From Candidatus Omnitrophota bacterium (GTDB lineage Bacteria; Omnitrophota; Gorgyraeia; Duberdicusellales; 4484-171): a DNA stretch of 64,000 nt. Below, piece after piece: positions 17,785-33,156 of the stretch (within the stretch, counting starts at the first letter, position 1; each line of letters opens with the position of its first letter). The position numbers and the translations under genes were made by a program. The notes below the pieces were generated by a model, which had not been told where the DNA came from, did no database searches, and was given only the letters and a program-made list of their open reading frames with translations. Location of the stretch: positions 1 through 64,000 of the forward strand of contig JAIPGM010000006.1 in the NCBI GenBank assembly GCA_021735655.1, read 5' to 3'.

Positions 17785-17814
17785 CACAAGCAGAAGATAA
17801 AGACAACGAAAACT

Positions 17815-19311
17815 CTAAGAACCGTACCAATAATTAACCAAAGGCTTTGCGTCTTTGGCTTTATCAATCAGAATATTTTTAAGCTGAGTATACTCTAAAA
17901 ATCCTTCTCTCCCCAGTTCTTTACCGAAACCACTTTGTTTAAATCCTCCATAAGGAAGCTGATTAAAAAACATACCATAAGTATTAACCCATACTGTCCC
18001 GGCGTTAAGTTCTTCGGCTAGACTCTTAGCTTTTGATTCATCTTTTGTCCAAATACAAGCTGCCAAAGCAAATTCTGAATTATTAGCTAACTCAACAGCC
18101 TCCCTTAGCGAAGAAAACTTAACTACGCAAACCACCGGCCCGAAAACTTCCTTCTGAAAAATAGACATCTCAGGGCTCACTTCAGCAATCACTGTCGGCT
18201 CAAAGAAAAATCCCTTTTCTAAACTAGAATTATCAGGAATCTTTCCACCACATAACACCTTAGCCCCTTGTTTCTTAGCCTCTTCAATAAAACTAATTAC
18301 CCCTTTTCTTTGACTCTCTGAAATCAATGGCCCAATTTGAGTCTCAAAATCTAAACCATCGCCTAATTTAATAGCTTTAGCTTTAATTATAAAATCATCA
18401 ACAAATTTATCATAAACTTTATCTTCAATTAAAATTCTCGACATTGCTGTGCACATCTGGCCCTGATTTAAAAATATCGAACACAATGAACCATTGACTG
18501 CTGCCTCTAAGTCACAATCAGCTAAAACTAAACTAGCTGATTTACCGCCCAGCTCCATGACTAGCTTTTTTACACTGCTTGAGGTATACTCAATAATTTT
18601 TTTACCAACTAAATTTGAACCAGTAAAAGATATCATATCAACTCGCTTATCAGAACAAAGCGCCTTGCCAACGGTCTCTCCCTTTCCGGCTAAAATATTA
18701 ACCACTCCCTTGGGTAATCCCGCCTCTTGAACTATCTTACCTAACTCTAAAGCAGTTAAAGGCGTAAGGCTCGATGGTTTTAGAATAACTGTATTACCGG
18801 CAGCTAGACTTTGAGCTAACTTCCAAGAAGCGATTATTAACGGGTAGTTCCAGGGAACAATCAACACCACCACGCCTCGCGGTTGACGAATCAGCTCGCT
18901 CTTTGCTTGGGCAATTTGAGATTGGATATCTACCGTCTCAGCTTCTAGAAACTTCTCTAAATTATTGGCAAAATAATCAAAAGTTTGAGCACTGGAAGGT
19001 ATATCCATAAAAGTTGACTCTTTGATTGGTTTCCCATTATTTTGTGTTTCTAGCTGAGCTAACTCAGCTGCTCTGTTGAGAATACCTTGTGCTATCTTTA
19101 AAATAAAACTTTTACGCTCAAGTAGTGAAAGCTTAGCCCAAGGACCTTGATCGAAGGCAATCCGAGCCGAGCTTATTGCTAGCTCAACATCAGAAGCATC
19201 AGCCAGGCTAACTGTAGCTATTGGTTCTCGATTAGCTGGATTGACTATAGTTTCTTTTGTGGCTGACTCTTTAAACTCACCATTAATAAATAAAGGATAA
19301 TTTGGTATCAT
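17815..19311 (-). CDS. NAD(P)-dependent aldehyde dehydrogenase
   Basis: ELGGKSA glutamate motif and catalytic Cys (GQMCTAMSR), 498 aa. Confidence 0.88.
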   Translation of the reverse strand: MIPNYPLFINGEFKESATKETIVNPANREPIATVSLADASDVELAISSARIAFDQGPWAKLSLLERKSFILKIAQGILNRAAELAQLETQNNGKPIKESTFMDIPSSAQTFDYFANNLEKFLEAETVDIQSQIAQAKSELIRQPRGVVVLIVPWNYPLIIASWKLAQSLAAGNTVILKPSSLTPLTALELGKIVQEAGLPKGVVNILAGKGETVGKALCSDKRVDMISFTGSNLVGKKIIEYTSSSVKKLVMELGGKSASLVLADCDLEAAVNGSLCSIFLNQGQMCTAMSRILIEDKVYDKFVDDFIIKAKAIKLGDGLDFETQIGPLISESQRKGVISFIEEAKKQGAKVLCGGKIPDNSSLEKGFFFEPTVIAEVSPEMSIFQKEVFGPVVCVVKFSSLREAVELANNSEFALAACIWTKDESKAKSLAEELNAGTVWVNTYGMFFNQLPYGGFKQSGFGKELGREGFLEYTQLKNILIDKAKDAKPLVNYWYGS

Positions 19312-20309
19312 CTAAACTTAACCTCTTTAAATAATTGAAATAAACGGGTAAACGGCACATACCATTTACTCAACTGGCCAAGTTGCCCTTCTAGCTTCAT
19401 CTTTCCTTGAGTAACTGCTACGAATGAATCTAATTTTCCCAAAAATACCTGTTGCCAAACATCAGACTCAGCCGAAATCACAAAAGGAGCATCACAGCTT
19501 GCATCTAAACTAGTAACTTTACCCTCTTTGAAGGTAAATCTATAAGCACTATCATCTTGGTTAAGCTTAATAGCTAACTGCACGGTTAAACCTAACTCCT
19601 TTCCTTTTTGAGCGATAAATTCATCCTTATTCACCAAATCGACTATCGCCTGAATATGCTCTTTAGAAAACATTGGGTAACTTATTTCATTTTTAGTAAG
19701 TGTATCTTTCAAAGACTTATCTAAATCATCTAGAATGTCCTTCTTAAATAATCTAGCTACAGCCGTAGTTCTTACCGCCTCCTCTAAAGCCTCAACTAAA
19801 CTTAAAGCATCAGAAAAATTATCACCGATTGCCACTGCTCCGTGATTTTTCAAAACTACTAAATTGTTAGTCTTTAGAGCTTCAATTACCTTTTCCGGCT
19901 TGGTGACAGTCGGAGTGTCTTGTTCGATAACCGGAACTTCCCCTAAATAAAACTTGGTTTCAAAAGTTAAAGCTTTTAGTTTTGAGCTGACTGCAAAATA
20001 ACCATTGATTAAGGGTGGATGACAATGAATAACTACCTTTTGATCAGAATTTTTATAAACCAAACTGTGCAAAGAAAGCTCTGAAGTCGGGGTTCTGTCG
20101 CTTTCAGTCCTTTGACTGGCTAAATTAACCTTAACAATATCATCATCGCCTAATTCACCGAGTGAAGTCTGAGTTGCTGTAATTAAAATATTTTCTTTAT
20201 CTAGACGACAACTTATATTCCCCGATTTAGCAACGGCTAAATCTTTTTCATAAAGTTTTTTGCCAACTTTAATAATCTCAGCTTTTAAAACTTTCTCCTG
20301 ATCGTTCAT
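19308..20309 (-). CDS. Class II aldolase/adducin-family protein (MtnB/FucA-like) fused to C-terminal SCP2-like domain
   Basis: SGNISCRLD and VIHCHPPLING aldolase_II motifs in first ~210 aa; extra ~120-aa C-terminal domain with SCP2-like pattern. Confidence 0.65.
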   Translation of the reverse strand: MNDQEKVLKAEIIKVGKKLYEKDLAVAKSGNISCRLDKENILITATQTSLGELGDDDIVKVNLASQRTESDRTPTSELSLHSLVYKNSDQKVVIHCHPPLINGYFAVSSKLKALTFETKFYLGEVPVIEQDTPTVTKPEKVIEALKTNNLVVLKNHGAVAIGDNFSDALSLVEALEEAVRTTAVARLFKKDILDDLDKSLKDTLTKNEISYPMFSKEHIQAIVDLVNKDEFIAQKGKELGLTVQLAIKLNQDDSAYRFTFKEGKVTSLDASCDAPFVISAESDVWQQVFLGKLDSFVAVTQGKMKLEGQLGQLSKWYVPFTRLFQLFKEVKFR

Positions 20310-21244
20310 TTTTTAACCTCTAAATGAATATGTTTAGTGATTAATTTATTCGGTGTAACATCAAAGGCCGGATAATAACCCCGAACCCCTTTGGGTGCGA
20401 TCGGTACCCCAGCTAACTCCAACAACTCCTTATCTGGTCTTCTCTCTATTTTTATATCTTTACCAGTTTTAGCCCTTGAGGCCGGAGGGCAAATAACATA
20501 AAAAGGAACCTTAAAATGCTTAGCTAAAATAGCAATCTGATAAGTTCCAACCTTATTAGCAATATCGCCATTTTGAGCTAAATTATCAGCCCCAACAATA
20601 ACCTTATCGATTTTCTTCTCCTGCATTACCTGAGCTACCATATTATCGGTAATTATTGTAACTTTGAATCCGGCTTGGGACAATTCCCAGGCCGTAAGTT
20701 TTGAACCCTGTAAGTATGGTCGAGTTTCAGTAACAAAAAAAGTAACTTTTTTCTTTTGTTCGGCAGCAAATTTACCAATTAGAGGCATAAGCCCGCTAAT
20801 ATTACAGTGGGTCAGAACTACATCGTTGTCTTCAACTAACTTGCTGGCCGTTTGAGCCTGAGATATGCGTTTATTCTTAAGCATCTCTAAAAAGCCGACT
20901 ATAGCCTTCTCAACCGGCACACCAGAAGTAACCCAGGCCAAAACCATATCAGTTAAAAACTTAAAAGAAAGAGTTGGCCGAGTTGAGTTAAGCGCTTTGG
21001 CAACCTTATTTAGTAAAACTAAATTCACTTTTCCTTTATTCTTCCTAATAACTAAAAGAAATGTATACATAACAAGTAAAACTTGGCCTACGGCCCGAGT
21101 TTTCATCTTTTTTATTGCCAAACAGGCCTCTTGATAAGTCTTTACTTTTATGTATTTCACCTTAAAAGGAAGTAAGGTTTCATCAAGAATATAAATAGTA
21201 TCTTTTTTTAACTGAATTGGCCAAAATAAAGGTGAATAATTCAT
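20306..21244 (-). CDS. mtnA: MtnA / eIF-2B-family sugar-1-phosphate isomerase (5-methylthioribose-1-P / 5-deoxyribose-1-P isomerase-like)
   Basis: VLTHCN, ETRPYLQGSKLTAWEL, VGADNLAQNGDIANKVGTYQIA, PAFDVTP motifs diagnostic of MtnA. Confidence 0.8.
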   Translation of the reverse strand: MNYSPLFWPIQLKKDTIYILDETLLPFKVKYIKVKTYQEACLAIKKMKTRAVGQVLLVMYTFLLVIRKNKGKVNLVLLNKVAKALNSTRPTLSFKFLTDMVLAWVTSGVPVEKAIVGFLEMLKNKRISQAQTASKLVEDNDVVLTHCNISGLMPLIGKFAAEQKKKVTFFVTETRPYLQGSKLTAWELSQAGFKVTIITDNMVAQVMQEKKIDKVIVGADNLAQNGDIANKVGTYQIAILAKHFKVPFYVICPPASRAKTGKDIKIERRPDKELLELAGVPIAPKGVRGYYPAFDVTPNKLITKHIHLEVKK

Positions 21245-22044
21245 AGTTTTTTCCTATATTCAGAAAGTATCTTTAAGGTGACTTCGCCGGGGACGCCTTT
21301 TCCTATTTTTTTATCCTCGACCTCAACTAAAGGCATCACCTCCATGAGGCTGCTAGTAACAAAAGCTTCCTCAGAAGCATGAATATCCTCTACTCTAAAT
21401 TCTTTTTCTTTTAAGATTAAGCCGAGTTCTTTAACTATATCAATAACTACTCTTCTGGTGATCCCATCGAATGCTCCATCTTCTAATCTAGGAGTGAAAA
21501 CCTCTTTATCTTTAACCAAAAATAAATTACTTCTTGAACCGCCAGCTAAAAAACACTTAGGATTTATGACTAAGGCTTCCTCTTTGCCCTTACGTTGAGC
21601 CTCTAGCCAAGAAATCCTATTTCTTAAGTAACTTATACTCTTTAACTTGGAAAGCAAATCCTTACCACATCTCCTATGGGAAGAAACTATTGCCGAAAAA
21701 CCCTTCTCATAAACCTCGGAACTATAATAGCCAAATTTATCTACATAAAGCAATACGCCAACCCCTTTTCGCTTCTTATAAACAGTTATCCGAATGTAAG
21801 CATCTTCTAATTCATTCTCTTTAAGCAAAGACTTGATTTCTGTTTCCCAATCCTTTCCTACACTTTCAATTCCGATTAAATCCAACCCTTGGTTTAATCT
21901 TGTAATGTGCTTTTTTAGAAAAGGAATATTTCCTCGATAGGCTCTGAACGGCTCAAAAAGCCCCCAGCCGAATAAAAACCCTGGCTCGAAAATTTCTGCT
22001 ACCTGGGATTTGTCAACTATGTTTCCGTTACAATAGACCTTCAT
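21241..22044 (-). CDS. Class IV (fold type IV) PLP-dependent aminotransferase
   Basis: Length 267 aa and conserved pattern of BCAT/DAAT/ADC-lyase family. Confidence 0.65.
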   Translation of the reverse strand: MKVYCNGNIVDKSQVAEIFEPGFLFGWGLFEPFRAYRGNIPFLKKHITRLNQGLDLIGIESVGKDWETEIKSLLKENELEDAYIRITVYKKRKGVGVLLYVDKFGYYSSEVYEKGFSAIVSSHRRCGKDLLSKLKSISYLRNRISWLEAQRKGKEEALVINPKCFLAGGSRSNLFLVKDKEVFTPRLEDGAFDGITRRVVIDIVKELGLILKEKEFRVEDIHASEEAFVTSSLMEVMPLVEVEDKKIGKGVPGEVTLKILSEYRKKL

Positions 22045-22937
22045 TAACCAAATATATTAAAAAAATTCTTATGGGTAATTTTTTCCTTTACCTTGCCCCC
22101 AAGCGAATCTAACATTTTCAAACTATTGTTAACATCTCCACAAACCGGATAGTCCGAACCCCAAAGAAGTCTATCTTGACCAAACAAATCAATAGCTAGT
22201 TCAATATTCTTTAAAGATCCCCCGGAAGTGTCAACATAAACATTTTTTAGAATCTCACTCGGTGACTTTCCTAAATCTTTAACAATTTCTCTTTTTCTAA
22301 GCATTGCATAGACCCGATCAAATCTATCTTTTAAAAAAGGTACAACCCCGCCTAAAGATGAAAAGATAAAATTCAACTTATACTTTTCTAAAATACCTTC
22401 AACCATCAATAAACCAAGGAATATTGAAGCATCAAAGCTATACTCTAATACCGGCATAAGCAAGGGATCTTTCACCCTTTCAAAACCAATCGGATTGATT
22501 GTCTGAGGATGCACGAAAATAGGCAAGTTGTTACTTTCAGCTGCCTCAAATAGAGGCTCAAGCTCTTTAACCAAAAATTTACCGTTGTGGCTTGAGGCAA
22601 TGCTAATCGCTCCAAAACCTCGCTGCTTTAACTCCTCAACCTGAAAAGCAACTGTTGCTAAACTTTCCGTATCAACAATGCCAGCACCAATAATTTTAGA
22701 ATTTTCCTTAGTGATTTCCTCAAGGGCAGAGTTATAAATATCACAAACTCTTGCGAAAACTTCTAATTTTAAATGAGCGTCAGTTGATGGATAGCAAAGA
22801 AGCGCTTTTTCTATATTATGTTTATCAAGATAAGCAAAAAGCGCATCCCGATCAGTCCAAACACCTTTATAAAAAGCTGTGTAAGCTGATAGCTTTTCAG
22901 GGATAAAATGAATATGAGAATCACACAAGATACTCAA
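22044..22937 (-). CDS. Amidohydrolase-2 family TIM-barrel metal-dependent hydrolase
   Basis: N-terminal CDSHIH metal-binding motif, ~300 aa. Confidence 0.6.
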   Translation of the reverse strand: MSILCDSHIHFIPEKLSAYTAFYKGVWTDRDALFAYLDKHNIEKALLCYPSTDAHLKLEVFARVCDIYNSALEEITKENSKIIGAGIVDTESLATVAFQVEELKQRGFGAISIASSHNGKFLVKELEPLFEAAESNNLPIFVHPQTINPIGFERVKDPLLMPVLEYSFDASIFLGLLMVEGILEKYKLNFIFSSLGGVVPFLKDRFDRVYAMLRKREIVKDLGKSPSEILKNVYVDTSGGSLKNIELAIDLFGQDRLLWGSDYPVCGDVNNSLKMLDSLGGKVKEKITHKNFFNIFG

Positions 22938-24394
22938 ATATGTTTTTCTCCTTTAACTGCACCTTCTTCCCACTTAGCTACGCCCTGCATAACATCCTGA
23001 AAGCATAGCTTAGCTAAAGGGTCAAAATCAGAAGTCATAATTCTCTGAATTCTTCCTGGTTTTGAGAAAAACTCTCGCATCGACCAGGCCCCAAGCCTTC
23101 CTAAATCTTCAATTGTCAAATGGTCAGTCGGTATTACCGGATGTAAAAAATCCCATTTACGAAAATCAATCTTTCGTGGATCAAACCACCCTTTCTTTAA
23201 GCCAATTCTCCACATTGGTGAATTCGGAGCCGGTGTTACATAACCAACCCAAAGAATATCCGGATCAACAGTGTCAGTAAACTCATGTCTTTGTTTAACG
23301 ATCTGTTCAGTGTCATGATCAAAGCCAATCATAATGTCCGCAACCACAGCTACATCCTGAGCTCGCAAGATATCGATTGTTTTTTTAATATGTTCAATGG
23401 TTACCCCTTTAGCAATTTTCTTTAACTCTTCCGGAGTAGTTACCTCTATTCCAAAAACTCCCATAAACAGACCAGTTTCTTTCATTAACGGTAAGATCTT
23501 TTCACAATTTACCCAGTCAATAGCTCTCCCTAAAGAAACCCACTTTATCGGATTTCCTTTTTCCTTCTTTAAATTACAGAACTTCTCCACTCGATCAGCA
23601 TCAACATTAAAGTTATCATCCTGAATTACCACGACTTTAGTCCCAAACTTATGATGCAATAACTCTAGTTCCTCAATTACCCGCTCAGGCGATTTAGCTC
23701 TCCAGGTTAAAAAATCATTAGGTGAGCGAGGATCGTACTGGTTCCACTCATAACAAAAGGTACAGGCTGAAGGACAACCTCGAGAGGTTATCATTTCAAC
23801 AAATGGTTTCCAATGAGTATGACCAACGTATTTATCCATCGGAAACAAATCATAGGCTGGCAAAGGTAAACTGTCTAAATCAGTCATTAACGGTCGGTGT
23901 GGCCCCATCTGAGGCTTGCCATCGATCCTTGACGCTGTTCCAGCTACATCTTTAGTTGAAGTACCAGCTTCAATTGTTTGAACCAAATCAAGAAAACCTT
24001 CTTCCTCAGCCATAACTACATGATCAATAGCCGGATTGTCTTCTAAGGTTTCAATCGGAGTTGCTGAATACCAAAGACCACCAACAACAACTTTAACATT
24101 CGGTAAAACCTGTTTTATCTTAGCGGCGGCTTGATTAAAATGCCAAACAACTCCAAAGCCAACCGCACAATGAATCATATCACCGAGTAAAACTAAGTCA
24201 GGATTAATATCTTTTACCTTTTCTCCCAACTGATCTAAAGCGATACCTAAAACTGTACAATCAAGCACCTGTAAATCATTATAGCCATGTTCGCGGATAT
24301 AGGCTGCCCATTGAGCATATAGTTGATTAGGAGCAAAATGCTCTCCATGAGTTGCCCAAGCGCCTACTTTTGGTGATACAAATAAAATTTTCAT
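22934..24394 (-). CDS. B12-binding-domain radical SAM protein
   Basis: N-terminal Rossmann-like B12-binding region followed by TSRGCPSACTFC Cx3Cx2C. Confidence 0.8.
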   Translation of the reverse strand: MKILFVSPKVGAWATHGEHFAPNQLYAQWAAYIREHGYNDLQVLDCTVLGIALDQLGEKVKDINPDLVLLGDMIHCAVGFGVVWHFNQAAAKIKQVLPNVKVVVGGLWYSATPIETLEDNPAIDHVVMAEEEGFLDLVQTIEAGTSTKDVAGTASRIDGKPQMGPHRPLMTDLDSLPLPAYDLFPMDKYVGHTHWKPFVEMITSRGCPSACTFCYEWNQYDPRSPNDFLTWRAKSPERVIEELELLHHKFGTKVVVIQDDNFNVDADRVEKFCNLKKEKGNPIKWVSLGRAIDWVNCEKILPLMKETGLFMGVFGIEVTTPEELKKIAKGVTIEHIKKTIDILRAQDVAVVADIMIGFDHDTEQIVKQRHEFTDTVDPDILWVGYVTPAPNSPMWRIGLKKGWFDPRKIDFRKWDFLHPVIPTDHLTIEDLGRLGAWSMREFFSKPGRIQRIMTSDFDPLAKLCFQDVMQGVAKWEEGAVKGEKHI

Positions 24395-24408
24395 CTCTTT
24401 AATCCTCC

Positions 24409-25173: not shown

Positions 25174-25185
25174 AACGCTCCTTTC

Positions 25186-26340: not shown

Positions 26341-26768
26341 TATTCCTTCTCAATTATCTCCTTAAATATCTTCATATTTGAAAGAGAATGATCATTGATC
26401 ATTTTTTCAGCTTGCTCATCATTAAATTTTGCGCCAGCAGCCATTTTAAAATCTTGGATCCAAGTCATCTCAGTCCCACCTTCAACCTCACGATACAACC
26501 AAATAATCTTCATAAATTCAAACGGGGCCATTGGCTCAACCCGAGATGCATAAGCAAATTTATCTTCTTTAAATAAAAGTCGGTAAGACTCCCAACTGCG
26601 GCCATTTTCATGGGTAAGCTTAAAAACTATCTTGTTTCCGGAAGTTTCTAAAACATCGCTTTCAACATATTCCTTAAAAAACTCTTTCCAACGTGAAATA
26701 TCATTGCTCATATCAAAAACCTTATCGTAAGTTGCCTTAATCACTACTGAATTTCTAGTGTGTGCCAT
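26340..26768 (-). CDS. SRPBCC-superfamily protein (polyketide cyclase/aromatase-like or lipid-binding)
   Basis: 142 aa, Bet v1-like pattern; context next to KS/CLF/ACP. Confidence 0.5.
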   Translation of the reverse strand: MAHTRNSVVIKATYDKVFDMSNDISRWKEFFKEYVESDVLETSGNKIVFKLTHENGRSWESYRLLFKEDKFAYASRVEPMAPFEFMKIIWLYREVEGGTEMTWIQDFKMAAGAKFNDEQAEKMINDHSLSNMKIFKEIIEKE

Positions 26769-26912
26769 TTTTTCTACCTCCTTTCAATGAGACTTAGTCT
26801 TTTTCTTCGCCTTCGGTTTGAAAAAGACTGTAGTCGAATTGATCCCGCCGAGCCTCGGGTAAATTTACGAAGGAAATTTACCCGATATCCGGGCGAGGCG
26901 GGATTACCTATA

Positions 26913-27716
26913 TTAATTATCAACCATAGCTACCACTCTCGCCCAGGCAGCTCCGGTTTTTCTTATTCTAACTGGAAAACAAATTACTTTGAAACCAAAA
27001 TCAGGTAACTTATCTAAATTGGCTAATCTTTCTATATGAATGAATTCACGTTTTCTTCCATAAAAATGGGTTGGCCAAAGCTTCTTTGGATCTTTTAACT
27101 CTTGAAACTCTTTAATCATAAACTTATAAGGCCGATCAATACCCATAGTATCAACACCGAAAATATTCACTTGCCTTTCAAGCAAATAGTCAATAACCGA
27201 TACATCTATCCCGGGATAATCAGAAAAATACTCTTTTTTGCCAAACAACTTATCCGAACCAGTATGCAATAAAACAATATCTAAAGGTTTTAATGAATAG
27301 TTAATCTTTTTTAGGCCGGCGTCTATATCTTGAGCAGTAATAACCTCTTCTGGTTTCTTATGCGTTAAATCGATTTTTACTCCCTGCTGGTAACACCAGT
27401 CTAAAGGTATTTCATCGGCAGTTTTTGAAGGGCGCCCCTGGGACTTACTACCATAATGATAAGAATAATCGAGATGTGTCCCACTGTGGACCGATGAATA
27501 AACCATCTCTAAAGATAAAAACTCTTCATCGGGCAAGTCTTCTTTTTTAATCATTCGCTCACCCTGTTCATAGCGAGCTTTACTTTCCGAATCACGCGAC
27601 ATCAAAACCTTATTTAACTTCTCAACCCCTTCACTGTGAGAAGTGCGCTCAATTCTTAAAGGATGTACTTCAAAGGCTTGGTCATCTATCGGCAGGCTCA
27701 AATCAACTATTTTCAT
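26913..27716 (-). CDS. Cyclase-family protein (kynurenine formamidase-like, PF04199)
   Basis: HSGTHLDYSYHYG resembling the HxGTHxDxPxH metal motif of the cyclase family. Confidence 0.65.
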   Translation of the reverse strand: MKIVDLSLPIDDQAFEVHPLRIERTSHSEGVEKLNKVLMSRDSESKARYEQGERMIKKEDLPDEEFLSLEMVYSSVHSGTHLDYSYHYGSKSQGRPSKTADEIPLDWCYQQGVKIDLTHKKPEEVITAQDIDAGLKKINYSLKPLDIVLLHTGSDKLFGKKEYFSDYPGIDVSVIDYLLERQVNIFGVDTMGIDRPYKFMIKEFQELKDPKKLWPTHFYGRKREFIHIERLANLDKLPDFGFKVICFPVRIRKTGAAWARVVAMVDN

Positions 27717-27731
27717 ATGTCTGTTATTTGC

Positions 27732-27965
27732 TTACTGCTTTTTTTTAGAAATTGTTTCGGTTATCTCTAAGGGAGTGGAAAACTTTGTAACCTCATCGGC
27801 CTCAAGATTAACTTGAAAGTTTTTCTTTAAGGCCACTACCAATTCCACTACTTCGGTTGAATCTACACCGATCGAATCATACATTTTCTGATCTTCTTTT
27901 AATTCCTCTTTACCAATATCTAATGTTTTACAAATAAGCTCAATTACCTCTTCTTTTAGCGCCAT
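27732..27965 (-). CDS. Acyl carrier protein
   Basis: 77 aa, acidic four-helix pattern with DSIGVDSTEVVEL phosphopantetheine-attachment-like site. Confidence 0.7.
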   Translation of the reverse strand: MALKEEVIELICKTLDIGKEELKEDQKMYDSIGVDSTEVVELVVALKKNFQVNLEADEVTKFSTPLEITETISKKKQ

Positions 27966-27980
27966 ATTTACCTCCTCAAT

Positions 27981-29213
27981 TTATTCTTTCTCAATTGCTA
28001 AAACAACATTTATTCCGCCACGACCTCTGGCCAAGATAAGAGCTTTCTTAACCTCAGCTTCCCTAGATTTATTCGGAGTATAATCTAAATCGCAGCAAGG
28101 ATCTTTCATTTCATAGTTAATGGTCGGTAGGATGGTTGAACTTTTCATCGAAAAAAGTGTCGAAATTAAATCTAAAGCTGTTTGAGCGCCCAATAAATTG
28201 CCATACATACTTTTAGGAGCACTTAAAGCAATATCTTTTATCCTTGTGCCGAATACATTCTTTAAGCTTCTGGTTTCAAGATAATCACCAAGTTCAGAAG
28301 CCTCAGCGTCTAAGCAAATATAATCAACCGCATCTTTTTTCCAACCAGCATCTTTGAGACATTCTTCTATCGCATACTCAAAATTACTTGAGTCGGGCCG
28401 GTAGCGTGAATAATGGTATCCATCAGAAGAAAACCCGATACCTTTTATAAACCCATACACCGGTACCCCTCTTTTTTTGGCTTGTGATTCCCTCTCTAGA
28501 AGCACAGTGCCTGATCCTTCGGCAATTACAAAACCGTCTCGATATAAATCGTAAGGTCGGTAGGCTTTTTTAAAGTTAAGGTTATTCTTTGATAAACCAC
28601 CCCGAGAATTAGCACATAAAAGTGCGTAGGGGCTAATCGGGGCTTCCATACCCCCAGCTACAACATAATCGTTTTTACCTTGGGCTACGGTTTTTGCCCC
28701 ATACCACAAAGCTAAGGCTGATGAAGCCTTGTCAGCGACTATGGTCTTACTATACCCTTTAAATCCGTAATAAATAGTAACTTGTCCTTGAGGGGCTGCC
28801 GGAAACCAGGCACTAGCCATATAAGGCGAAATACCTTCTCTTCCTTCAATATACATATCACGTAATTCGGTTTCAGCAAAAAGCCAGCCACCTAAAGCAT
28901 TACCCATAAAAACGCCAACTTTATTTTTATCAATATTATCTAAATCAATTTTTGAATCTTTAAGTGCCTGCTCACAAGAAACAAGAGCCATATGAGAAAA
29001 AACATCGATCTTTTTTACTAAGCGACCGGAAAGATGAGTATAGTGATCAAGCTCATGAACTTGACCGGCAATTCGTGAAGGATAACCGGAAGAATCAAAA
29101 CGGTTTACTTCATCGATAAACGATCCGCCTCGCTTAAGGTTAGCCCAAAAAGTTTCTTTCTTCAATCCACAAGGTGAAACTACACCAATACCAGTTATTG
29201 CTATTCTTTCCAT
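27981..29213 (-). CDS. Ketosynthase-like protein lacking catalytic Cys/His/His (chain-length-factor / KS-beta-like)
   Basis: Thiolase fold; active-site positions read ...DKASSAL... (no Cys), DAEAS instead of NAHGT, SMYGN instead of SMxGH. Confidence 0.75.
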   Translation of the reverse strand: MERIAITGIGVVSPCGLKKETFWANLKRGGSFIDEVNRFDSSGYPSRIAGQVHELDHYTHLSGRLVKKIDVFSHMALVSCEQALKDSKIDLDNIDKNKVGVFMGNALGGWLFAETELRDMYIEGREGISPYMASAWFPAAPQGQVTIYYGFKGYSKTIVADKASSALALWYGAKTVAQGKNDYVVAGGMEAPISPYALLCANSRGGLSKNNLNFKKAYRPYDLYRDGFVIAEGSGTVLLERESQAKKRGVPVYGFIKGIGFSSDGYHYSRYRPDSSNFEYAIEECLKDAGWKKDAVDYICLDAEASELGDYLETRSLKNVFGTRIKDIALSAPKSMYGNLLGAQTALDLISTLFSMKSSTILPTINYEMKDPCCDLDYTPNKSREAEVKKALILARGRGGINVVLAIEKE

Positions 29214-29216
29214 TAT

Positions 29217-30467
29217 TTAAGCCTCCCACCGTTTGAATACAATTGATGAATGTATTCCTGAAAATCCACTGCTTGTTTTTAATATGTAATTAGGCATAAG
29301 TTTTCGTTTTTTATTAGGAATATAGTCTAGATCGCACTTTGGATCTTGTTCTTCCTGATTAATGGTTGGCGGGAGATAACCACCTTTAAAAATCATACAG
29401 CAAAGTACAGCTTCAGCAGCATTAGCTGCAGCTAAAGGATGACCAATCATTGACTTTATCGAACTAATCGGAATTTTATAAGCTAAGTCACCAAAAACTT
29501 GCTTATAGGCATCCGTCTCAAAAGTATCGTTCTGCCTGGTGCTTGAACCGTGGGCATTAATATAACCTATCTCTTCCTTCTTAATCCCTGCCTCTTTAAT
29601 TGCCTCCTCCATACAGCGAGCCATTGGCTCACCGCTAGCCGGTAGATCAGTCATATGATAAGCATTGCAACTTGTGCCATAACCTAAAACTTCCGCATAA
29701 ATTGGAGCCCCGCGCTTTTTAGCATGCTCAAGCTCCTCCATAATTACAATTCCCGCTGCCTCAGAAATTACAAAGCCATTTCGCTTATTATCAAAAGGAC
29801 GCGAGGCCTTATGTGGCTCATCATTATTTTTAGCTAAAACATTTACCACGTCAAAAGCACCAAAGGTAATCGGAGTAACCGGAGCCTCACTTGCCCCGGC
29901 AATAATAAATTCCTGCCTGCCCTCACGAATAAGCTCATAGGCAAAGCCTATCGAATCGCTTCCTGCGGTACAACCAGTTGAAACCGTACAGTTCATACCT
30001 TGAGTTCCATAAACTGCTCCCACCTCAGCGCTGGGACTATTAAACATAGCTGCATCATAAAGATAAGGTCGACCTTTTCTTGGATCAATTGGTTTTTTAC
30101 CCCACTCGGTAACTAATAAAAACTCCTCTTCCATGAAGCGGGTTCCGCAAATTGCATTAGCTAAAACTACACCACAGCGACGGCGGTCAACGCTTTCAAA
30201 GTCAATTTTTGAATCGCTAACTGCCTGTTTAGCCGCGGCAACTGCAAATTGAACATACCTATCCATACGCTTATGCTCAGCGATTCCATAGTTCAAAGGA
30301 TCGAACCCTAAAACCTGAGAAGCAATCTTTGAAACAAAAATACTAACATCAAAATTTTCAACTAGCTCAACGGAAGACCTACCTTCAATAAGGTTATTAT
30401 AAAACTCATGTTTATCTTCGCCAGCTCCCGAAATTATCCCAACTCCAGTAATAACTACTCTTCTCAT
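29217..30467 (-). CDS. Beta-ketoacyl-ACP synthase (FabF-like, active KS-alpha)
   Basis: STGCTAGS active-site Cys, NAHGSST and IGHPLAAA His motifs. Confidence 0.88.
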   Translation of the reverse strand: MRRVVITGVGIISGAGEDKHEFYNNLIEGRSSVELVENFDVSIFVSKIASQVLGFDPLNYGIAEHKRMDRYVQFAVAAAKQAVSDSKIDFESVDRRRCGVVLANAICGTRFMEEEFLLVTEWGKKPIDPRKGRPYLYDAAMFNSPSAEVGAVYGTQGMNCTVSTGCTAGSDSIGFAYELIREGRQEFIIAGASEAPVTPITFGAFDVVNVLAKNNDEPHKASRPFDNKRNGFVISEAAGIVIMEELEHAKKRGAPIYAEVLGYGTSCNAYHMTDLPASGEPMARCMEEAIKEAGIKKEEIGYINAHGSSTRQNDTFETDAYKQVFGDLAYKIPISSIKSMIGHPLAAANAAEAVLCCMIFKGGYLPPTINQEEQDPKCDLDYIPNKKRKLMPNYILKTSSGFSGIHSSIVFKRWEA

Positions 30468-30480
30468 TATTTAATACTCC

Positions 30481-31104
30481 TTAATCTTTTCGGGTAATCT
30501 TAAAAATAATATTTCCACCATCAGGACAAGTTACTGTATCAATAGAATTATGATCCTTCATGAAGAAAAATTTAGCTCCAAAATTAAGAGCAAAAAGAGC
30601 CGGAAAGGCGACATGCCAGGCTGCCCCACAAAATCCATCAATACACTTTAAACCTTTTACCTGCCACTTATCACCCAGCTTATATTTATAAGAACATTTA
30701 CCTTTAGCTTTAACAACTTCAATCTCCATGTTTTTAGGATTAGGTCCTTTGTGGTTAGGGTCTTTAGGAATAAATTTAACTTTGTCATTCTTGTCTAATA
30801 GCTCAACTAAAAATTCGGCCTTTCCACCATCAGGGCAAGTAACTTTTAGAGATTTCTGATTATCCATAAAGCCAAACCGGGCGCCAAAACTTAGAGCATA
30901 AGCAACCGGAAAAAGTGCATGGGCTAAACCTAAACAAAAATGTTTAGGCGGATGGGTAAAATCTCCCAAAATAAACTCATCGTTAACTTCGTAACCATGA
31001 TAACACTCTCCATAAACTCCAATACAAGTTAACTTCAACCTAGGAAAAGGAGTATTGATATCGGCACAGTTAGCCTTGCAATATTCATCTTTACAATTTT
31101 TCAT
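30481..31104 (-). CDS. Tandem-duplicated Cys/His-rich small-domain protein (TIGR04076-like, tentative)
   Basis: Two internal repeats each with FC.G.AHA.FP...AL.FGA.F.FM......VTCPDGG. Confidence 0.45.
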   Translation of the reverse strand: MKNCKDEYCKANCADINTPFPRLKLTCIGVYGECYHGYEVNDEFILGDFTHPPKHFCLGLAHALFPVAYALSFGARFGFMDNQKSLKVTCPDGGKAEFLVELLDKNDKVKFIPKDPNHKGPNPKNMEIEVVKAKGKCSYKYKLGDKWQVKGLKCIDGFCGAAWHVAFPALFALNFGAKFFFMKDHNSIDTVTCPDGGNIIFKITRKD

Positions 31105-31137
31105 ATGATTTTAGCTCCTTAATAAATCTATCCTTTT

Positions 31138-32142
31138 TTAAGAATTAATCGAATTTATTTCTCTCAACAACTCTTCTTTAGATAAAAATCTACCAGTCTC
31201 CTCTAAATTATGCACTAGCTCAACTATTTTTTGATTAAGCTTAGCCGGCTCACAGTTAGCTATAGCCTGATGTATGATTTCTCCGTTAATATAGTCAATT
31301 TCTGATTTTTTCCCACGCTTTATGGATTGTAAAATTGAACCATATAAAGGTTCTTTGCTTAAATTAGTCATAATTTTTGAGAATAGACCAGCTGCTTCAT
31401 CTAAAGGCATCTTAACTAAGCCTTCAATTCTCTCCTTGGGATAAGTTAAAAGACTGGCTAATTCTATATTAGCCTTGGTTATAATTTCATAGGCTTCTTT
31501 GTTCAGCTTAATTGCCAAGCGGGCTAAGTCTATATCAACAAATGCCTCCTGCATCGAAACTCCCAGAATAGCCGGAATGCAATTATTTAAATTTACAAAT
31601 AACTTAAGATACTTAGCACCTTTTATATTATCTGAACTAACTACGTTGAAGGCTGGTTTAAGTAGATTAACGACTTCTTCGTATTTTTCTACTTTAGTAT
31701 TATATATATTTCCTAATACGAGTTCACCTTCAAAATTATGGATAACCTTATCCGGTGAGTAAAAAGTTGCCCCAAACATAACAATCCCGCTCAGTATTTT
31801 ATTTTCGGGGATAAAACTATTAACAATATGATCGGCCTGTATTCCATTTTGAGTAGTTAGAGCTAAAGAATTTTTCAAAAATTCAAAATTGTCGTTGATA
31901 ATTGCTTCAAGATCATTAACCTTGGTTGCAAAAATGGCTAAGTCTACCCTTTCAGTTAACTTTGTATCAACCTTAACTTCTTGCTTATGACTACCGCGGA
32001 CACCCTCTAAGCTCAGGCCTTCTTTTAGTAATAAACCTTTCTGATGATCACGAACAACGCCGACTACATCATGGCCATCTTTAGCAAGATAACCTAAAAA
32101 TAATCCGCCAATTGCTCCGCAACCTAATACTGCTATTTTCAT
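31138..32142 (-). CDS. Ketopantoate reductase (ApbA/PanE) family NAD(P)-dependent oxidoreductase
   Basis: MKIAVLGCGAIGG Rossmann motif, length 334 aa. Confidence 0.75.
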   Translation of the reverse strand: MKIAVLGCGAIGGLFLGYLAKDGHDVVGVVRDHQKGLLLKEGLSLEGVRGSHKQEVKVDTKLTERVDLAIFATKVNDLEAIINDNFEFLKNSLALTTQNGIQADHIVNSFIPENKILSGIVMFGATFYSPDKVIHNFEGELVLGNIYNTKVEKYEEVVNLLKPAFNVVSSDNIKGAKYLKLFVNLNNCIPAILGVSMQEAFVDIDLARLAIKLNKEAYEIITKANIELASLLTYPKERIEGLVKMPLDEAAGLFSKIMTNLSKEPLYGSILQSIKRGKKSEIDYINGEIIHQAIANCEPAKLNQKIVELVHNLEETGRFLSKEELLREINSINS

Positions 32143-32151
32143 AAATTTATT

Positions 32152-32412
32152 CTACTCTTTTATATATTTCGAATATTCAATGCCCTGCTGGCTAAAAAGT
32201 CTTTTCATCATATCTTTAAAGGCCGGGGGCACTTCTTTAAAAAAAGCGATAACCACATCTTGGTCTTCTACGGCCTCAGAGTTTCTTTTGGTAGCTAGTT
32301 CTTCAGCGCTTTCTTTAACTAGTTGCTCAGCTATTGAGCGATGAAATTGGGGAAGATTTTCAATTACCTTATCAAAATGTTCTTTTGCTTTATCGGACCA
32401 CTTAATATCCAT
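32152..32412 (-). CDS. Small PCP_red-like domain protein
   Basis: IKWSDKAKEHFDKVIENLPQFHRSIAEQLVKESAEELA matches W-S/T-x-E-A...IP-x-F-x-R pattern of standalone PCP_red (PF08369) proteins. Confidence 0.45.
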   Translation of the reverse strand: MDIKWSDKAKEHFDKVIENLPQFHRSIAEQLVKESAEELATKRNSEAVEDQDVVIAFFKEVPPAFKDMMKRLFSQQGIEYSKYIKE

Positions 32413-32421
32413 ATAATCCTC

Positions 32422-33156
32422 CTACAGTTTATCAATTGCCTCAAAGGCTAAATCAGTCATCTTCATTTCAGCCCCGAAAAAACGATAATCACTAAATCCC
32501 ATCTGGCCGGTTATGAGATTGTCCGACACTACACAAATTGCCGCAGCCCGTTTATTATTAAGGTTAGCAACCGTTACAAAGGGTGAAGTTACCATGTCTA
32601 CGGCAATCGCTCCTTTCTCAATATAGGGGTTAACAATTTCTTTGGTCTCACGAAAGATAGCGTCGGTAGTCCAAATCCCTCCTCGGTGAACAGATCCGGC
32701 CCCGGAAAAAGAATTCTCTAAAATGTCGGTTACCTCATTGTCTACCTTAGGTTTATAATCGTCATCAACATAATAACGAGTTGTTCCATCTCCACGCAAA
32801 ACATCGGTCACTAAAACATAATCCCCGATATTAATGTCCTGACGTAGAGCCCCACAAGAACCCAATCTAATAAATGTCTTAACCCCTCCGGCACAAAGTA
32901 TCTCAGTAGCTAGGGCTGAGTCAGGAGCGTAAAATCCTCCATTACCGACAGTAATTTTTCTCCCCTTATAAAGCCCGGTCCAAAAGGTATAAGCTAAAAA
33001 AGTAAAGTTCTTGACTGGATTTTCTAATTTCTTTAGACACATTTGAGCCCGATGTTGTTGACCGCTTACTAAAACAATATCACCAAAATCACCCGGCTTA
33101 AACTGCAAAGAAGCTAAAAGCCCCTTAGGATCCATATGAACATCTCTCTGCATCAT
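32422..33156 (-). CDS. PNP/UDP-family nucleoside phosphorylase (putative 5'-deoxyadenosine/MTA phosphorylase or futalosine-hydrolase-like)
   Basis: RLGSCGAL phosphate-binding motif and VDMVTSPF (E-M-E-x-A-like) region. Confidence 0.7.
   Translation of the reverse strand: MMQRDVHMDPKGLLASLQFKPGDFGDIVLVSGQQHRAQMCLKKLENPVKNFTFLAYTFWTGLYKGRKITVGNGGFYAPDSALATEILCAGGVKTFIRLGSCGALRQDINIGDYVLVTDVLRGDGTTRYYVDDDYKPKVDNEVTDILENSFSGAGSVHRGGIWTTDAIFRETKEIVNPYIEKGAIAVDMVTSPFVTVANLNNKRAAAICVVSDNLITGQMGFSDYRFFGAEMKMTDLAFEAIDKL

Follow-up and report, generated by a model that had tools for sequence, protein, structure and literature searches.

A radical SAM operon in a Candidatus Omnitrophota MAG carries genes for a nucleoside phosphorylase, an MtnA-type isomerase, a class II aldolase and an aldehyde dehydrogenase. 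We judge it moderately probable that these four genes, probably with a ligase gene of the same operon, encode a DHAP-shunt variant that works by phosphorolysis and disposes of 5'-deoxyadenosine and 5-deoxyribose, within an operon conserved phylum-wide. From the observed family assignments, intact catalytic residues, operon structure and comparative gene order, we infer every substrate and product along this route. 5'-Deoxyadenosine is a toxic by-product of radical SAM enzymes; here it would be released by the operon's B12-binding radical SAM enzyme and by an RlmN-type enzyme encoded immediately downstream in the ancestral layout. The phosphorylase would convert it into adenine and 5-deoxyribose-1-phosphate, the isomerase would turn the latter into 5-deoxyribulose-1-phosphate, the aldolase would split this into DHAP and acetaldehyde, and the dehydrogenase would oxidize the acetaldehyde, yielding acetate. 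This last oxidation would fall to an aldehyde:ferredoxin oxidoreductase (AFOR) in some relatives, while in others a Zn-ADH and an LsrF-type thiolase would turn the ketose phosphate directly into DHAP and acetyl-CoA.

Operon structure and gene content

The window analyzed here spans 64,000 nucleotides, and its operon comprises 18 tightly packed genes on the minus strand, from 34631 to 17815. Overlaps of 1-4 nt link the genes for the B12-binding radical SAM enzyme, amidohydrolase, aminotransferase, isomerase, aldolase and aldehyde dehydrogenase, which agrees with the co-transcription of by-product salvage and B12-radical SAM genes put forward in the original prediction. The remaining junctions measure at most 33 nt, with the sole exception of a structured 144-nt spacer, the only long gap of the operon, which holds two strong hairpins (26790..26912, minus strand) and whose RNA fold reaches -47.9 kcal/mol (z = -5.2 vs shuffles). 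Solely as consensus matches, a promoter-like site (TTGACT-16-TAAAAT, 10/12; 34662..34689, minus strand) lies in the 107-nt gap 5' of the ligase gene, and a terminator-like hairpin (17775..17795, minus strand) lies just 3' of the aldehyde dehydrogenase stop codon. The gene for the RlmN-type radical SAM methyltransferase (14311..15336, minus strand; Pfam RlmN_N and Radical_SAM) is split from the module in this window by three plus-strand genes.

Judging from its genes, the operon presumably makes a lipid or polyketide by means of a ketosynthase/chain-length factor (KS/CLF) pair and the B12-radical SAM enzyme; all genes described below are on the minus strand. The FabF-like KS-alpha (29217..30467; Pfam) has its active-site Cys and passes the FabF subfamily cut-off, while the chain-length-factor-like ketosynthase homologue (27981..29213; Pfam), when aligned with KS-alpha, has Lys in place of this Cys and has lost one catalytic His. 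They are accompanied by a 77-aa acyl carrier protein (27732..27965) with a DSIGVDS motif and matches to NCBIfam ACP models, whose homologue in locus L001 is annotated PP-binding, by a PF04199 "putative cyclase" family protein (26913..27716; Pfam Cyclase, E 8e-30), by an SRPBCC/polyketide cyclase-dehydrase family protein (26340..26768; Pfam Polyketide_cyc2), by an MFS transporter (25186..26340; Pfam MFS_1) and by a short-chain dehydrogenase of the ketoreductase type (24409..25173; Pfam adh_short and KR). The B12-binding radical SAM enzyme (22934..24394; Pfam B12-binding and Radical_SAM) is BchE/HpnJ-like, its best NCBIfam models being BchE (174 bits) and HpnJ (136 bits), both far below cut-off; it has a CxxxCxxC motif at residue 207, and homologues with 72-94% identity sit in the same cluster elsewhere. 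This enzyme is the presumed source of 5'-deoxyadenosine in the operon, and we infer that it is also the main source of the by-product.

Next to it are encoded an Amidohydro_2 family protein of the decarboxylase/hydrolase type (22044..22937; Pfam Amidohydro_2) and a class IV (fold-type IV PLP) aminotransferase/lyase (21241..22044; Pfam Aminotran_4), which matches NCBIfam BCAT and ADC-lyase models below cut-off and whose gene is confined to the operon arrangement of this window (18 loci). Nearer the 5' end lie genes for an 86-aa DUF2621-like protein (32152..32412; Pfam DUF2621, 29.9 bits), kept at the equivalent position in related loci, for a ketopantoate-reductase-like (ApbA/PanE family) oxidoreductase (31138..32142; Pfam ApbA and ApbA_C) that clears the NCBIfam apbA_panE subfamily cut-off, and for a tandem TIGR04076-family protein (30481..31104; NCBIfam TIGR04076, two stretches), whose position just 5' of KS-alpha is conserved across related loci.

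Enzymes of the putative salvage module

The original prediction placed the four module genes at exactly the coordinates found here, and its family assignments are borne out by Pfam matches and retained catalytic residues. The PNP/UDP-family phosphorylase (32422..33156; Pfam PNP_UDP_1, E 1.6e-35) does not score as a bona fide uridine or purine phosphorylase, falling far below the DeoD (92 vs 232 bits) and Udp (80 vs 280 bits) equivalog cut-offs. Among solved structures its best match is 1jds, the hexameric MTA phosphorylase of Sulfolobus (E 1e-25); in comparison with 1jds it keeps the equivalents of G20, R24, R87, S90 and D204, has lost R43, an Arg contributed by the neighbouring subunit, and has Val in place of the ribose-binding E181, the resulting "VDMV" being invariant in 60 homologues. 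From its sequence we propose a 5'-deoxyadenosine/MTA phosphorylase, although the substrate may be other than a plain nucleoside because Glu181 is replaced by Val family-wide and Arg43 is lost. The enzyme set of the operon includes neither a kinase nor a nucleosidase; therefore the isomerase can be fed by the phosphorylase only, as in the MtnP-type DHAP shunt (PMC10986504) and in phosphorylase clusters (PMC6079011). According to a preprint, 70-99% of Gorgyraeia genomes have an MTA phosphorylase at the KO level; if this is a different gene, the phosphorylase of the operon would not be needed for general salvage.

The isomerase (20306..21244; Pfam IF-2B/MtnA family, E 6.5e-59) is of the MtnA type, predicted to convert an aldose-1-phosphate into a ketose-1-phosphate, and conserves the equivalents of the catalytic Cys160 and Asp240 of B. 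subtilis MtnA. Its score exceeds the cut-off of the subfamily model eIF-2B_rel (214 vs 186 bits) and falls short of that of the MtnA equivalog (241 vs 279); it scores 256 bits as MtnA-type vs 123 as ribose-1,5-bisphosphate isomerase type.

The class II (metal-dependent) aldolase (19308..20309; Pfam Aldolase_II, E 3e-35) has an intact metal site, with Glu77, His95, His97 and His156 invariant in 47 homologues, and its AF2 model (mean pLDDT 84) matches FucA, YgbL and DrdA in fold. Aldolase models (115, 94 and 91 bits) outscore MtnB models (71 and 61 bits), in line with the original prediction. At its C-terminus the aldolase also carries an SCP2 domain (E 8.7e-7, passing the Pfam cut-off), absent from that prediction and modelled as an SCP2-type alpha/beta domain. 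This lipid-carrier-type domain is fused to the aldolase in every locus, and no other part of the protein is as strongly conserved. It may anchor the aldolase to a lipid-making complex or may itself be the lipid carrier of the pathway. A soluble five-carbon sugar phosphate does not call for it, which counts against salvage.

The last gene of the operon encodes an NAD(P)-dependent non-acylating aldehyde dehydrogenase (17815..19311; Pfam Aldedh, E 5e-168) that reaches no NCBIfam equivalog cut-off, and the first encodes an AMP-forming acyl/aryl-CoA (or ACP) ligase (33159..34631; Pfam AMP-binding and AMP-binding_C). Among solved structures the ligase is nearest to 4-coumarate/feruloyl-CoA ligases and to FadD13 rather than to acetyl-CoA synthetases, which are long proteins of about 650 aa. 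It may activate the acetate or prime the ketosynthase. An aldehyde dehydrogenase followed by an AMP-forming 4CL/FadD-like ligase would be a costly and unusual way to recover acetaldehyde, which also counts against salvage.

Gene order in related loci

Across genomes and metagenomes, about 130 related loci combine the module and cluster genes, an association far beyond chance. The commonest order (about 60 of 80 genome loci) is amidohydrolase (AH2), phosphorylase (PNP), isomerase (ISO), aldolase (ALD), aldehyde dehydrogenase (ADH), ligase (LIG) and RlmN, the module being contiguous, in pathway order and directly after the KS/CLF and B12-radical SAM genes. In most related loci the ligase gene directly follows that of the aldehyde dehydrogenase, and RlmN directly follows the module with a 4-nt overlap. 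The dispersal of the genes that was originally described is therefore true of the arrangement in this window, a minority rearrangement shared by about 25 metagenome contigs, and not of the commonest one. In a third arrangement, seen in a 43%-identity relative, LIG, PNP, ISO, ALD and ADH are directly followed by B12. Co-inheritance of module and cluster thus spans three arrangements and 43-100% identity, and among related loci with a long enough contig none had the module but lacked the B12-radical SAM/KS cluster. In locus L111, the B12-radical SAM gene is missing together with the isomerase, aldolase and aldehyde dehydrogenase genes, which counts for salvage, while the phosphorylase and ligase genes persist without it, which counts against.

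The accessory genes whose presence differs from locus to locus all encode enzymes that handle aldehydes or acetyl groups. The aldehyde dehydrogenase gene occurs in 81 related loci but is not universal: it is missing from L123 and L126, versions with MMPL, DUF1329 and DUF1302 neighbours, an absence that counts against salvage. Some related loci add AFOR, and 14 (about 15%) insert a Zn-ADH and an LsrF-type thiolase either between aldolase and aldehyde dehydrogenase or right after the latter. The thiolase scores 346 bits (LsrF equivalog cut-off 297); against E. coli LsrF itself it reaches 239 bits and retains the catalytic Lys. By chemical reasoning, 5-deoxyribulose-1-phosphate oxidized at C4 would be exactly the LsrF substrate, 3-hydroxy-2,4-pentanedione-5-phosphate, which therefore argues for a methyl-ended, 5-deoxy substrate. 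In a distant relative (P0414), a full-length Aldolase_II is fused to Radical_SAM and SPASM domains; the fusion gene comes after an MtnA-like gene and before genes for an FMN reductase and AFOR. The fusion independently ties the aldolase to a different class of radical SAM enzyme and suggests a trait common to all radical SAM enzymes, namely the by-product. The Zn-ADH and LsrF insertions, the AFOR additions and this fusion favour a 5-deoxy substrate and a link to the radical SAM by-product.

Alternative substrates and biological meaning

It is possible, with a low probability, that the module processes an adenosylated intermediate of the lipid or polyketide pathway. The operon's radical SAM enzyme would join an unsaturated lipid or polyketide with the 5'-deoxyadenosyl radical, in the manner of HpnH acting on diploptene and of MqnE in futalosine synthesis; the phosphorylase would remove adenine, like HpnG and MqnB; the isomerase and SCP2-aldolase would cut C1-C3 of the ribose off as DHAP, leaving an intermediate two carbons longer with an aldehyde end; and the dehydrogenase and ligase would convert this aldehyde into a thioester for further KS/CLF chemistry. 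The invariable SCP2 fusion, the strict co-inheritance, the altered phosphorylase site with its weak HpnG match (43 bits), the BchE/HpnJ models of the radical SAM enzyme, the lipid product indicated by the MMPL, DUF1329 and DUF1302 neighbours and the order of dehydrogenase and 4CL/FadD-like ligase, suited to activating a larger acyl group as the acid, all agree with such a route. However, profile searches detected no HpnH- or MqnE-type enzyme in the operon or window, and we know of no B12-binding radical SAM enzyme that adenosylates. Moreover, the thiolase of the 14 loci lies above the equivalog cut-off of an acetyl-transferring enzyme, a better fit with a methyl-ended than with a bulky substrate, the aldolase is fused to a SPASM-type radical SAM enzyme in another lineage, and some versions lack the aldehyde dehydrogenase.

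Less probable still is a module acting mainly on 5'-methylthioadenosine, for sulfur salvage as in Rhodospirillum or for a (methylthio)acetate starter unit loaded by the ligase. The nearest solved phosphorylase and the closest isomerase models point that way, and dehydrogenase followed by ligase would yield an activated (methylthio)acetyl unit, but the operon has no recognizable MTA-forming enzyme (aminopropyl/aminocarboxypropyl transferase, ACC/AHL-synthase type) and no methanethiol or methylthioethanol handler, and the LsrF-type insertion is in keeping with a methyl ketone. We regard as very improbable a nucleoside catabolism in which adenosine or guanosine would pass through ribose-1-phosphate and ribulose-1-phosphate to DHAP and glycolaldehyde, then glycolate, resembling the ribulose-1-phosphate aldolase step of the haloarchaeal pentose-bisphosphate route. 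The phosphorylase is similar to DeoD-type enzymes, the aldolase weakly matches the haloarchaeal ribulose-1-phosphate aldolase model (60 bits, cut-off 300) and an aldehyde dehydrogenase could oxidize glycolaldehyde; against this, the isomerase is not of the ribose-1,5-bisphosphate type, transport or purine genes would be expected as partners rather than a strict radical SAM/KS linkage, and the LsrF-type insertion requires a 5-deoxy sugar. Canonical methionine salvage by MtnA and an MtnB dehydratase is scarcely credible, even though public records annotate the isomerase as MTR-1-P isomerase and MtnB belongs to the class II aldolase-fold proteins: MtnB models score below aldolase models, an aldehyde dehydrogenase gene follows the aldolase gene, and none of MtnB/C/D/K/W/X is found in the window (no enolase-phosphatase, dioxygenase, RuBisCO-like protein or kinase) or in the Pfam lists of genes called around related loci. 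Classical methionine salvage also needs O2, and the organisms with this operon are presumably anaerobes.

The comparative evidence, that is contiguity, constant linkage to the radical SAM cluster, LsrF/Zn-ADH insertions and the aldolase-radical SAM fusion, strengthens the DHAP-shunt-like salvage originally predicted, as do the enzyme identities. Simple salvage does not predict the SCP2 domain, the alterations at the ribose and phosphate site of the phosphorylase or a ligase of the 4CL/FadD type, and these features leave room for a pathway-specific substrate. By analogy with known DHAP shunts, whose enzymes take both MTA- and 5'-deoxyadenosine-derived substrates (PMC10986504), the module probably also accepts MTA. 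The E. coli DHAP shunt was shown to be unnecessary for detoxification (PMC10986504), which counts against the salvage reading. If the salvage reading is true, the operon would most likely turn its own toxic radical SAM by-product into central metabolites.

Organization and conservation of the host operon

Pfam and NCBIfam scans, together with a listing of small ORFs, revealed the gene content of the operon, which is part of a long minus-strand gene run in AT-rich DNA (37% G+C). It starts at 34631 with a gene coding for an AMP-forming ligase, followed on the same strand by genes for a PNP/UDP-family phosphorylase, a DUF2621-like protein of 86 aa, a ketopantoate-reductase-like oxidoreductase, a tandem TIGR04076 protein, a FabF-like ketosynthase with its Cys present and a second ketosynthase homologue. 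Lys replaces Cys in the latter, making it chain-length-factor-like (CLF-like). Next come genes for an ACP, a PF04199 "cyclase", an SRPBCC protein, an MFS transporter, an SDR (ketoreductase), a BchE/HpnJ-like B12-binding radical SAM enzyme (B12-rSAM) with a CxxxCxxC motif, an Amidohydro_2 protein, a class IV aminotransferase, an MtnA-like isomerase, a class II aldolase and an aldehyde dehydrogenase (ALDH), whose gene ends at 17815. This combination of a ketosynthase/CLF-like (KS/CLF) pair with ACP, ketoreductase, cyclase, SRPBCC, Amidohydro_2, B12-rSAM, ketopantoate-reductase-like, tandem TIGR04076 and DUF2621-like proteins is conserved across Omnitrophota.

The four genes central to the original prediction were confirmed by ORF and family scans: the phosphorylase gene at 32422-33156, the isomerase gene at 20306-21244, the aldolase gene at 19308-20309 and the ALDH gene at 17815-19311, all on the minus strand. 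Junctions within the operon measure 33 nt or less everywhere except for one 144-nt spacer, with overlaps of 1-4 nt among the last six genes. A promoter-like site lies 5' of the ligase gene and a terminator-like hairpin 3' of the ALDH gene. Such tight spacing between promoter-like and terminator-like ends suggests that the four genes are co-transcribed with the B12-rSAM gene, as had been proposed.

The 144-nt gap, located between the cyclase and SRPBCC genes, harbors a structured segment (26790-26912, minus strand) with a predicted fold of two strong hairpins (-47.9 kcal/mol, z = -5.2). This segment matches no Rfam family, has no second copy elsewhere in the window and may be an element of mRNA processing, stability or attenuation. 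Across the whole window, no riboswitch or other RNA control element matched Rfam at gathering thresholds and no tRNA was found.

Among the matches listed, the nearest homologues of the isomerase, the aldolase and the radical SAM enzyme are 68-94% identical to them, and those bearing a name are nearly all from Omnitrophota. A Candidatus Omnitrophica MAG at NCBI encodes, on a 100-kb contig, a protein with 100% identity to the aldolase, whereas an exact-sequence look-up of the isomerase returned no identical record. To compare gene orders, 80 genome loci surrounding aldolase homologues were retrieved and all operon proteins were mapped onto them. About 60 of the 80 share the order ketosynthase, CLF-like homologue, B12-rSAM, ACP, cyclase, SRPBCC, (MFS), SDR, (small proteins), Amidohydro_2, phosphorylase, isomerase, aldolase, ALDH, ligase, RlmN. 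In this commonest arrangement, whose upstream end was recovered via radical SAM homologues because the flanks of the genome loci were too short, the genes from phosphorylase to ligase are contiguous and in pathway order, and the gene of RlmN, another radical SAM enzyme, overlaps the last of them by 4 nt. The arrangement of the window, with ligase and phosphorylase first and the class IV aminotransferase before the isomerase, is also widespread and recurs in about 25 metagenome contigs. A third arrangement, found on a 3.4-Mb contig (43% aldolase identity), runs from ligase through phosphorylase, isomerase, aldolase and ALDH directly to the B12-rSAM gene and then to the ketosynthase genes. Versions labelled Thermodesulfobacteriota or Pseudomonadota (loci L123 and L126) keep the phosphorylase, the isomerase and the aldolase with its SCP2 domain, lack the ALDH and add MMPL, DUF1329 and DUF1302 proteins, neighbors suggestive of a (possibly exported) lipid product.

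The module was not found apart from the radical SAM/ketosynthase cluster in any locus with enough flanking sequence. One metagenome contig (Ga0172371_10004000, our L111) lacks the B12-rSAM, isomerase, aldolase and ALDH genes together, keeps those of the ligase and phosphorylase and bears extra ORFs; there the aminotransferase gene is followed by a gene of no assigned family and then by a phosphofructokinase gene. Relatives of the aldolase-SCP2 protein at 32% identity or less occur in other contexts, and our conclusions are limited to relatives above 32% aldolase identity. In one 31%-identity relative (L131:9409-12174), genes for cobalamin uptake and synthesis adjoin two phosphorylase-like fragments, both short, an aldolase whose tail is SCP2/alkyl-sulfatase-C-like and an AMP-binding protein that is likewise short; a decayed module may have left this remnant.

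Downstream of the operon, the genes for RlmN, RsmF, 5-FTHF cyclo-ligase, RNase Y, YmdB and DXS follow in an order that the window shares with the related locus L001, which points to a core chromosomal locus rather than an island. RlmN directly abuts the operon in most related loci. The three plus-strand genes that separate it from the ALDH gene in the window (15471-17784), coding for a sulfotransferase-like protein, a protein of no assigned family and a Pro_CA_2 putative carbonic anhydrase, look like a local insertion. On the opposite side (35881-37699, minus strand), the gene of a 450-aa tyrosine recombinase, with a Phage_integrase domain and two SAM-like N-terminal stretches, shares 29 nt with that of a nitroreductase; no tRNA lies nearby. 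A TrmA/RlmD-like methyltransferase gene comes after the nitroreductase gene and directly precedes the operon. In several related contigs, too, the operon is preceded by the nitroreductase and methyltransferase genes, but no integrase was seen in them. Farther out (37906-40109 and 41179-45378, plus strand), genes for two MORN-repeat proteins, then for a signal peptidase, and several ORFs without Pfam match form the sole plus-strand block of this kind, where the GC skew flips sign. Two PilZ-domain proteins (7817-8176 and 46328-48088) are encoded among housekeeping genes, one of them being 586 aa long with an N-terminal PilZ match only.

Enzymes of the module

The isomerase passes the NCBIfam eIF-2B_rel subfamily model and scores 241 bits against the MtnA equivalog, below its 279-bit cut-off. 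Its nearest solved relatives are the MtnA proteins of T. maritima and B. subtilis, and the Cys of its THCN motif and the Asp of its VGADN motif align with C160 and D240 of the B. subtilis enzyme. The MtnA-like assignment thus holds, catalytic residues included. A ribose-1,5-bisphosphate isomerase was ruled out (123 vs 256 bits).

The aldolase domain retains the Glu and the three metal-binding His of FucA and DrdA, all of which are invariant in 47 homologues. FucA, YgbL and DrdA match it about equally well by fold; for DrdA (6BTD), the E value is 5e-13 by sequence and the TM score 0.80 by fold. Since aldolase HMMs outscore MtnB HMMs, a class II aldolase rather than an MtnB dehydratase is plausible, and the ALDH encoded just downstream implies an aldehyde product. 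Residues ~216-327 of the protein form an SCP2 domain that the original prediction had missed (Pfam 29.7 bits against a cut-off of 21.3). The AF2 model of this domain has a pLDDT of 84-92 and predicts the order helix-helix, four strands, helix-helix, strand, helix; a fold search with the full model returned matches to the aldolase domain only and did not place the SCP2 domain separately. SCP2 is present in homologues at 43-54% identity and in every homologue down to ~31-43%, and is the most invariant region of the protein among the 47 homologues. The fusion is confined to a few dozen sequence clusters. SCP2 domains are typically lipid carriers. Such a domain is unexpected for a soluble five-carbon sugar phosphate and does not fit simple salvage.

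The phosphorylase belongs to PNP_UDP_1. Among solved structures, the hexameric 5'-methylthioadenosine (MTA) phosphorylase of Sulfolobus is its nearest relative. In the NCBIfam scan, no match to the MtnP-type (trimeric) model was listed. The protein falls far below the DeoD and Udp cut-offs, arguing against a genuine uridine or purine phosphorylase, the case that the original prediction held to be contrary to salvage. We aligned 60 homologues to E. coli DeoD. Equivalents of G20, R24, R87, S/T90, S203 and D204 are kept and that of R43 is lost; four of the five residues of the phosphate site are thus retained, as is the purine-N7 Asp. The ribose motif VEME is invariably VDMV, i.e., E181 is replaced by Val. 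As read from this alignment, the altered ribose/phosphate site is a second misfit with simple salvage. An MTA phosphorylase has been assigned at KO level to most Gorgyraeia in a preprint covering 176 complete Omnitrophota genomes (10.64898/2026.06.07.730766); this could be the same gene or another.

The ALDH is a typical non-acylating enzyme that reaches no NCBIfam equivalog cut-off. The ligase is of the 4-coumarate/FadD13 type, not a long Acs-type acetyl-CoA synthetase. Recovering acetaldehyde through an ALDH and an AMP-forming ligase is costly, and this too sits poorly with simple salvage. The ligase may instead belong to ketosynthase priming, given that non-Omnitrophota versions of the operon have other genes between ligase and aldolase and no ALDH.

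Relatedness to known pathways and clues to the substrate

In the MtnP-type DHAP shunt, a phosphorylase, an MtnA-type isomerase and an aldolase of class II yield DHAP and an aldehyde (PMC10986504). The shunt of Rhodospirillum and Rhodopseudomonas (MtnP, MtnA, Ald2) shares with our module its three-step logic, its gene clustering and its proposed substrates, and this phosphorylase variant is, judging by sequence, the closest system in function. Several features nevertheless set the module apart. Its phosphorylase is of the hexameric DeoD/Sulfolobus type with an altered site and lacks an MtnP match, its aldolase carries SCP2, the aldolase is followed by an ALDH instead of an alcohol dehydrogenase and then by a ligase, and the genes lie within a B12-rSAM/KS-CLF operon whereas the shunt stands alone. 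The sequence data support the isomerase as a DHAP-shunt enzyme; for the aldolase and phosphorylase, such membership is plausible.

The Drd pathway of Bacillus thuringiensis (DrdK/DrdI/DrdA) also couples an isomerase to a class II aldolase, converting 5-deoxyribose-1-phosphate into DHAP and acetaldehyde; phosphorylase-containing clusters were noted alongside it (PMC6079011). The DrdA structure 6BTD matches our aldolase domain, but the latter is no nearer to DrdA than to FucA and is fused to SCP2. The genomic surroundings are also different, and the substrate would enter through phosphorolysis without a kinase. The Drd pathway was ruled out as no kinase family was matched in the 18 operon genes or among the homologues of window proteins mapped in about 130 related loci. 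More generally, matches specific to kinases or nucleosidases were absent from the operon genes, leaving phosphorolysis as the sole feed for the isomerase, as in the MtnP-type DHAP shunt and in the phosphorylase-containing clusters just mentioned. Classical methionine salvage was likewise discarded: MtnB, MtnC/MtnD, MtnW/MtnX and MtnK are all absent from the 64-kb window, and from the Pfam lists of genes called in related loci at up to 10 kb from the module. The remainder of that pathway, which the original prediction had singled out as evidence against its reading, is therefore not found in either setting.

Streptomyces cattleya converts a 5'-substituted 5'-deoxyadenosine into a substituted acetate by means of a fluorinase, the FlB phosphorylase, an isomerase, an aldolase and a fluoroacetaldehyde dehydrogenase. 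The last four steps are identical to those of the module (phosphorylase, MtnA-like isomerase, class II aldolase, ALDH), yet nothing here indicates a halogenated or otherwise substituted substrate. This fluoroacetate route has been mentioned as analogous (PMC6079011). A fluoroacetate- or salinosporamide-like pathway was ruled out, with no fluorinase, chlorinase or DUF62 protein detected by Pfam in the operon and window ORFs scanned.

Comparison with other loci gave three clues to the 5' substituent of the substrate. In 14 related loci (~15%), genes for a Zn-dependent dehydrogenase (Zn-ADH) and an LsrF-type thiolase are inserted between the aldolase and ALDH genes or just after the latter, for example at L001:13393-15143 and in L048, L050, L051, L058, L065, L066, L068, L071, L073, L074 and L076; the window lacks them. 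The thiolase is a true LsrF-type protein (346 bits against an equivalog cut-off of 297 in NCBIfam) that shares about half of its residues with E. coli LsrF, the catalytic Lys among them. Like LsrF of AI-2 degradation, it would yield DHAP and acetyl-CoA; unlike the AI-2 pathway, these loci have neither LsrK nor LsrG and the partner is the Zn-ADH. Oxidation of 5-deoxyribulose-1-phosphate at C4 would, by our reasoning, give 3-hydroxy-2,4-pentanedione-5-phosphate, the substrate of LsrF. The pair could then convert 5-deoxyribulose-1-phosphate into DHAP and acetyl-CoA without releasing an aldehyde. We found no paper linking LsrF with 5-deoxyribulose in the literature searched. This insertion argues for a methyl-ended substrate, i.e., 5'-deoxyadenosine. 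The genes variably present around the module (ALDH, aldehyde:ferredoxin oxidoreductase, Zn-ADH with LsrF) all code for aldehyde or acetyl handlers.

A library-wide search uncovered a 551-aa protein (P0414; L134:1082-2737) in which a complete class II aldolase is fused to a Radical_SAM and SPASM enzyme. On its contig of only 4.6 kb, an MtnA-like gene comes before it and genes for an FMN reductase and an aldehyde:ferredoxin oxidoreductase after it. This fusion ties the isomerase/aldolase pair to another class of radical SAM enzyme, which a by-product common to all such enzymes explains more easily than one particular intermediate. A second candidate fusion (P0388), made of a partial radical SAM enzyme, a partial aldolase and SCP2, was not used since each of its domains breaks off where the two join, as may happen in a deletion chimera.

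Waste disposal or biosynthesis

On balance, we lean towards a module dedicated to the disposal of 5'-deoxyadenosine, and probably of MTA, wired into a radical SAM lipid/polyketide operon. The original prediction of by-product salvage is thereby retained in part. Enzyme families, operon linkage and comparative gene order speak for it, with the substrates being those we infer, while the SCP2 domain, the phosphorylase site and the ligase type remain at odds with it.

These same misfits leave some room for a module that acts on a larger molecule. In adenosylhopane synthesis (HpnH/HpnG) and the futalosine pathway (MqnE/MqnB), a PNP_UDP-family enzyme encoded within a radical SAM lipid or quinone operon removes the purine from a 5'-C-linked adenosyl compound, and some versions of our operon have lipid-export neighbors (MMPL) as well. 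By analogy, the module might trim an adenosylated lipid or polyketide intermediate to a two-carbon arm. A lipid-type domain on the aldolase, the changed phosphorylase site, the 4-coumarate/FadD13-type ligase, the expense of the ALDH and ligase route, and a KO-level MTA phosphorylase of Gorgyraeia that is maybe another gene all keep such a role in play. However, HpnG and MqnB systems retain or rearrange the ribose where this module would cleave it with the isomerase and aldolase. No match to HpnH or MqnE models was listed, the B12-binding BchE/HpnJ-like enzyme and RlmN being the only radical SAM proteins of the window, so that no adenosylating radical SAM enzyme is present by model match; the LsrF and SPASM-fusion evidence also points the other way. 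We thus regard this alternative as unlikely. Slightly less probable still is the notion that the module is a carbon-carbon extension device rather than a means of waste disposal, in which the ribose of SAM would donate a C2 unit to an unactivated carbon. In such a scheme, a radical SAM enzyme encoded in the operon would adenosylate a lipid or polyketide intermediate, the phosphorylase, MtnA-type isomerase and SCP2-aldolase would trim the ribose to a two-carbon aldehyde arm while freeing DHAP, and the ALDH and ligase would re-activate this arm for the KS/CLF pair, the SCP2 fusion serving as the enabling lipid-binding adaptor.

Neither the operon nor a DHAP shunt inside a biosynthetic cluster was found described in the literature searched. 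The same applies to the features that we consider new, namely the constant embedding among B12-rSAM and KS/CLF genes, a phosphorylase of hexameric type whose site is altered, the fusion to SCP2, the proposed oxidation of the aldehyde and the LsrF-type branch of some relatives. Clusters of the "ladderane" type reported by antiSMASH in Omnitrophota were noted without explanation (PMC9902471); we would guess that they may be this operon.

Disposal by the module, as we favor it, would mean that a biosynthetic radical SAM operon comes with a complete built-in route (phosphorylase, isomerase, aldolase, aldehyde oxidation). To our knowledge, every radical SAM enzyme is self-poisoned by 5'-deoxyadenosine, and how disposal is matched to production in cells is poorly known. 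The linkage has been retained phylum-wide through three gene rearrangements, and one lineage fuses the aldolase to a radical SAM enzyme. Should an adenosylated intermediate be the substrate instead, the module would represent a new use of SAM as a two-carbon donor. The analysis also provides a family of phosphorylases whose active site is unusual, the fusion of an aldolase to SCP2, a candidate aldehyde-free branch in which a Zn-ADH and an LsrF-type thiolase would lead directly to acetyl-CoA, and a large operon of KS/CLF and B12-rSAM genes, unexplored so far, that belongs to the core of Omnitrophota.
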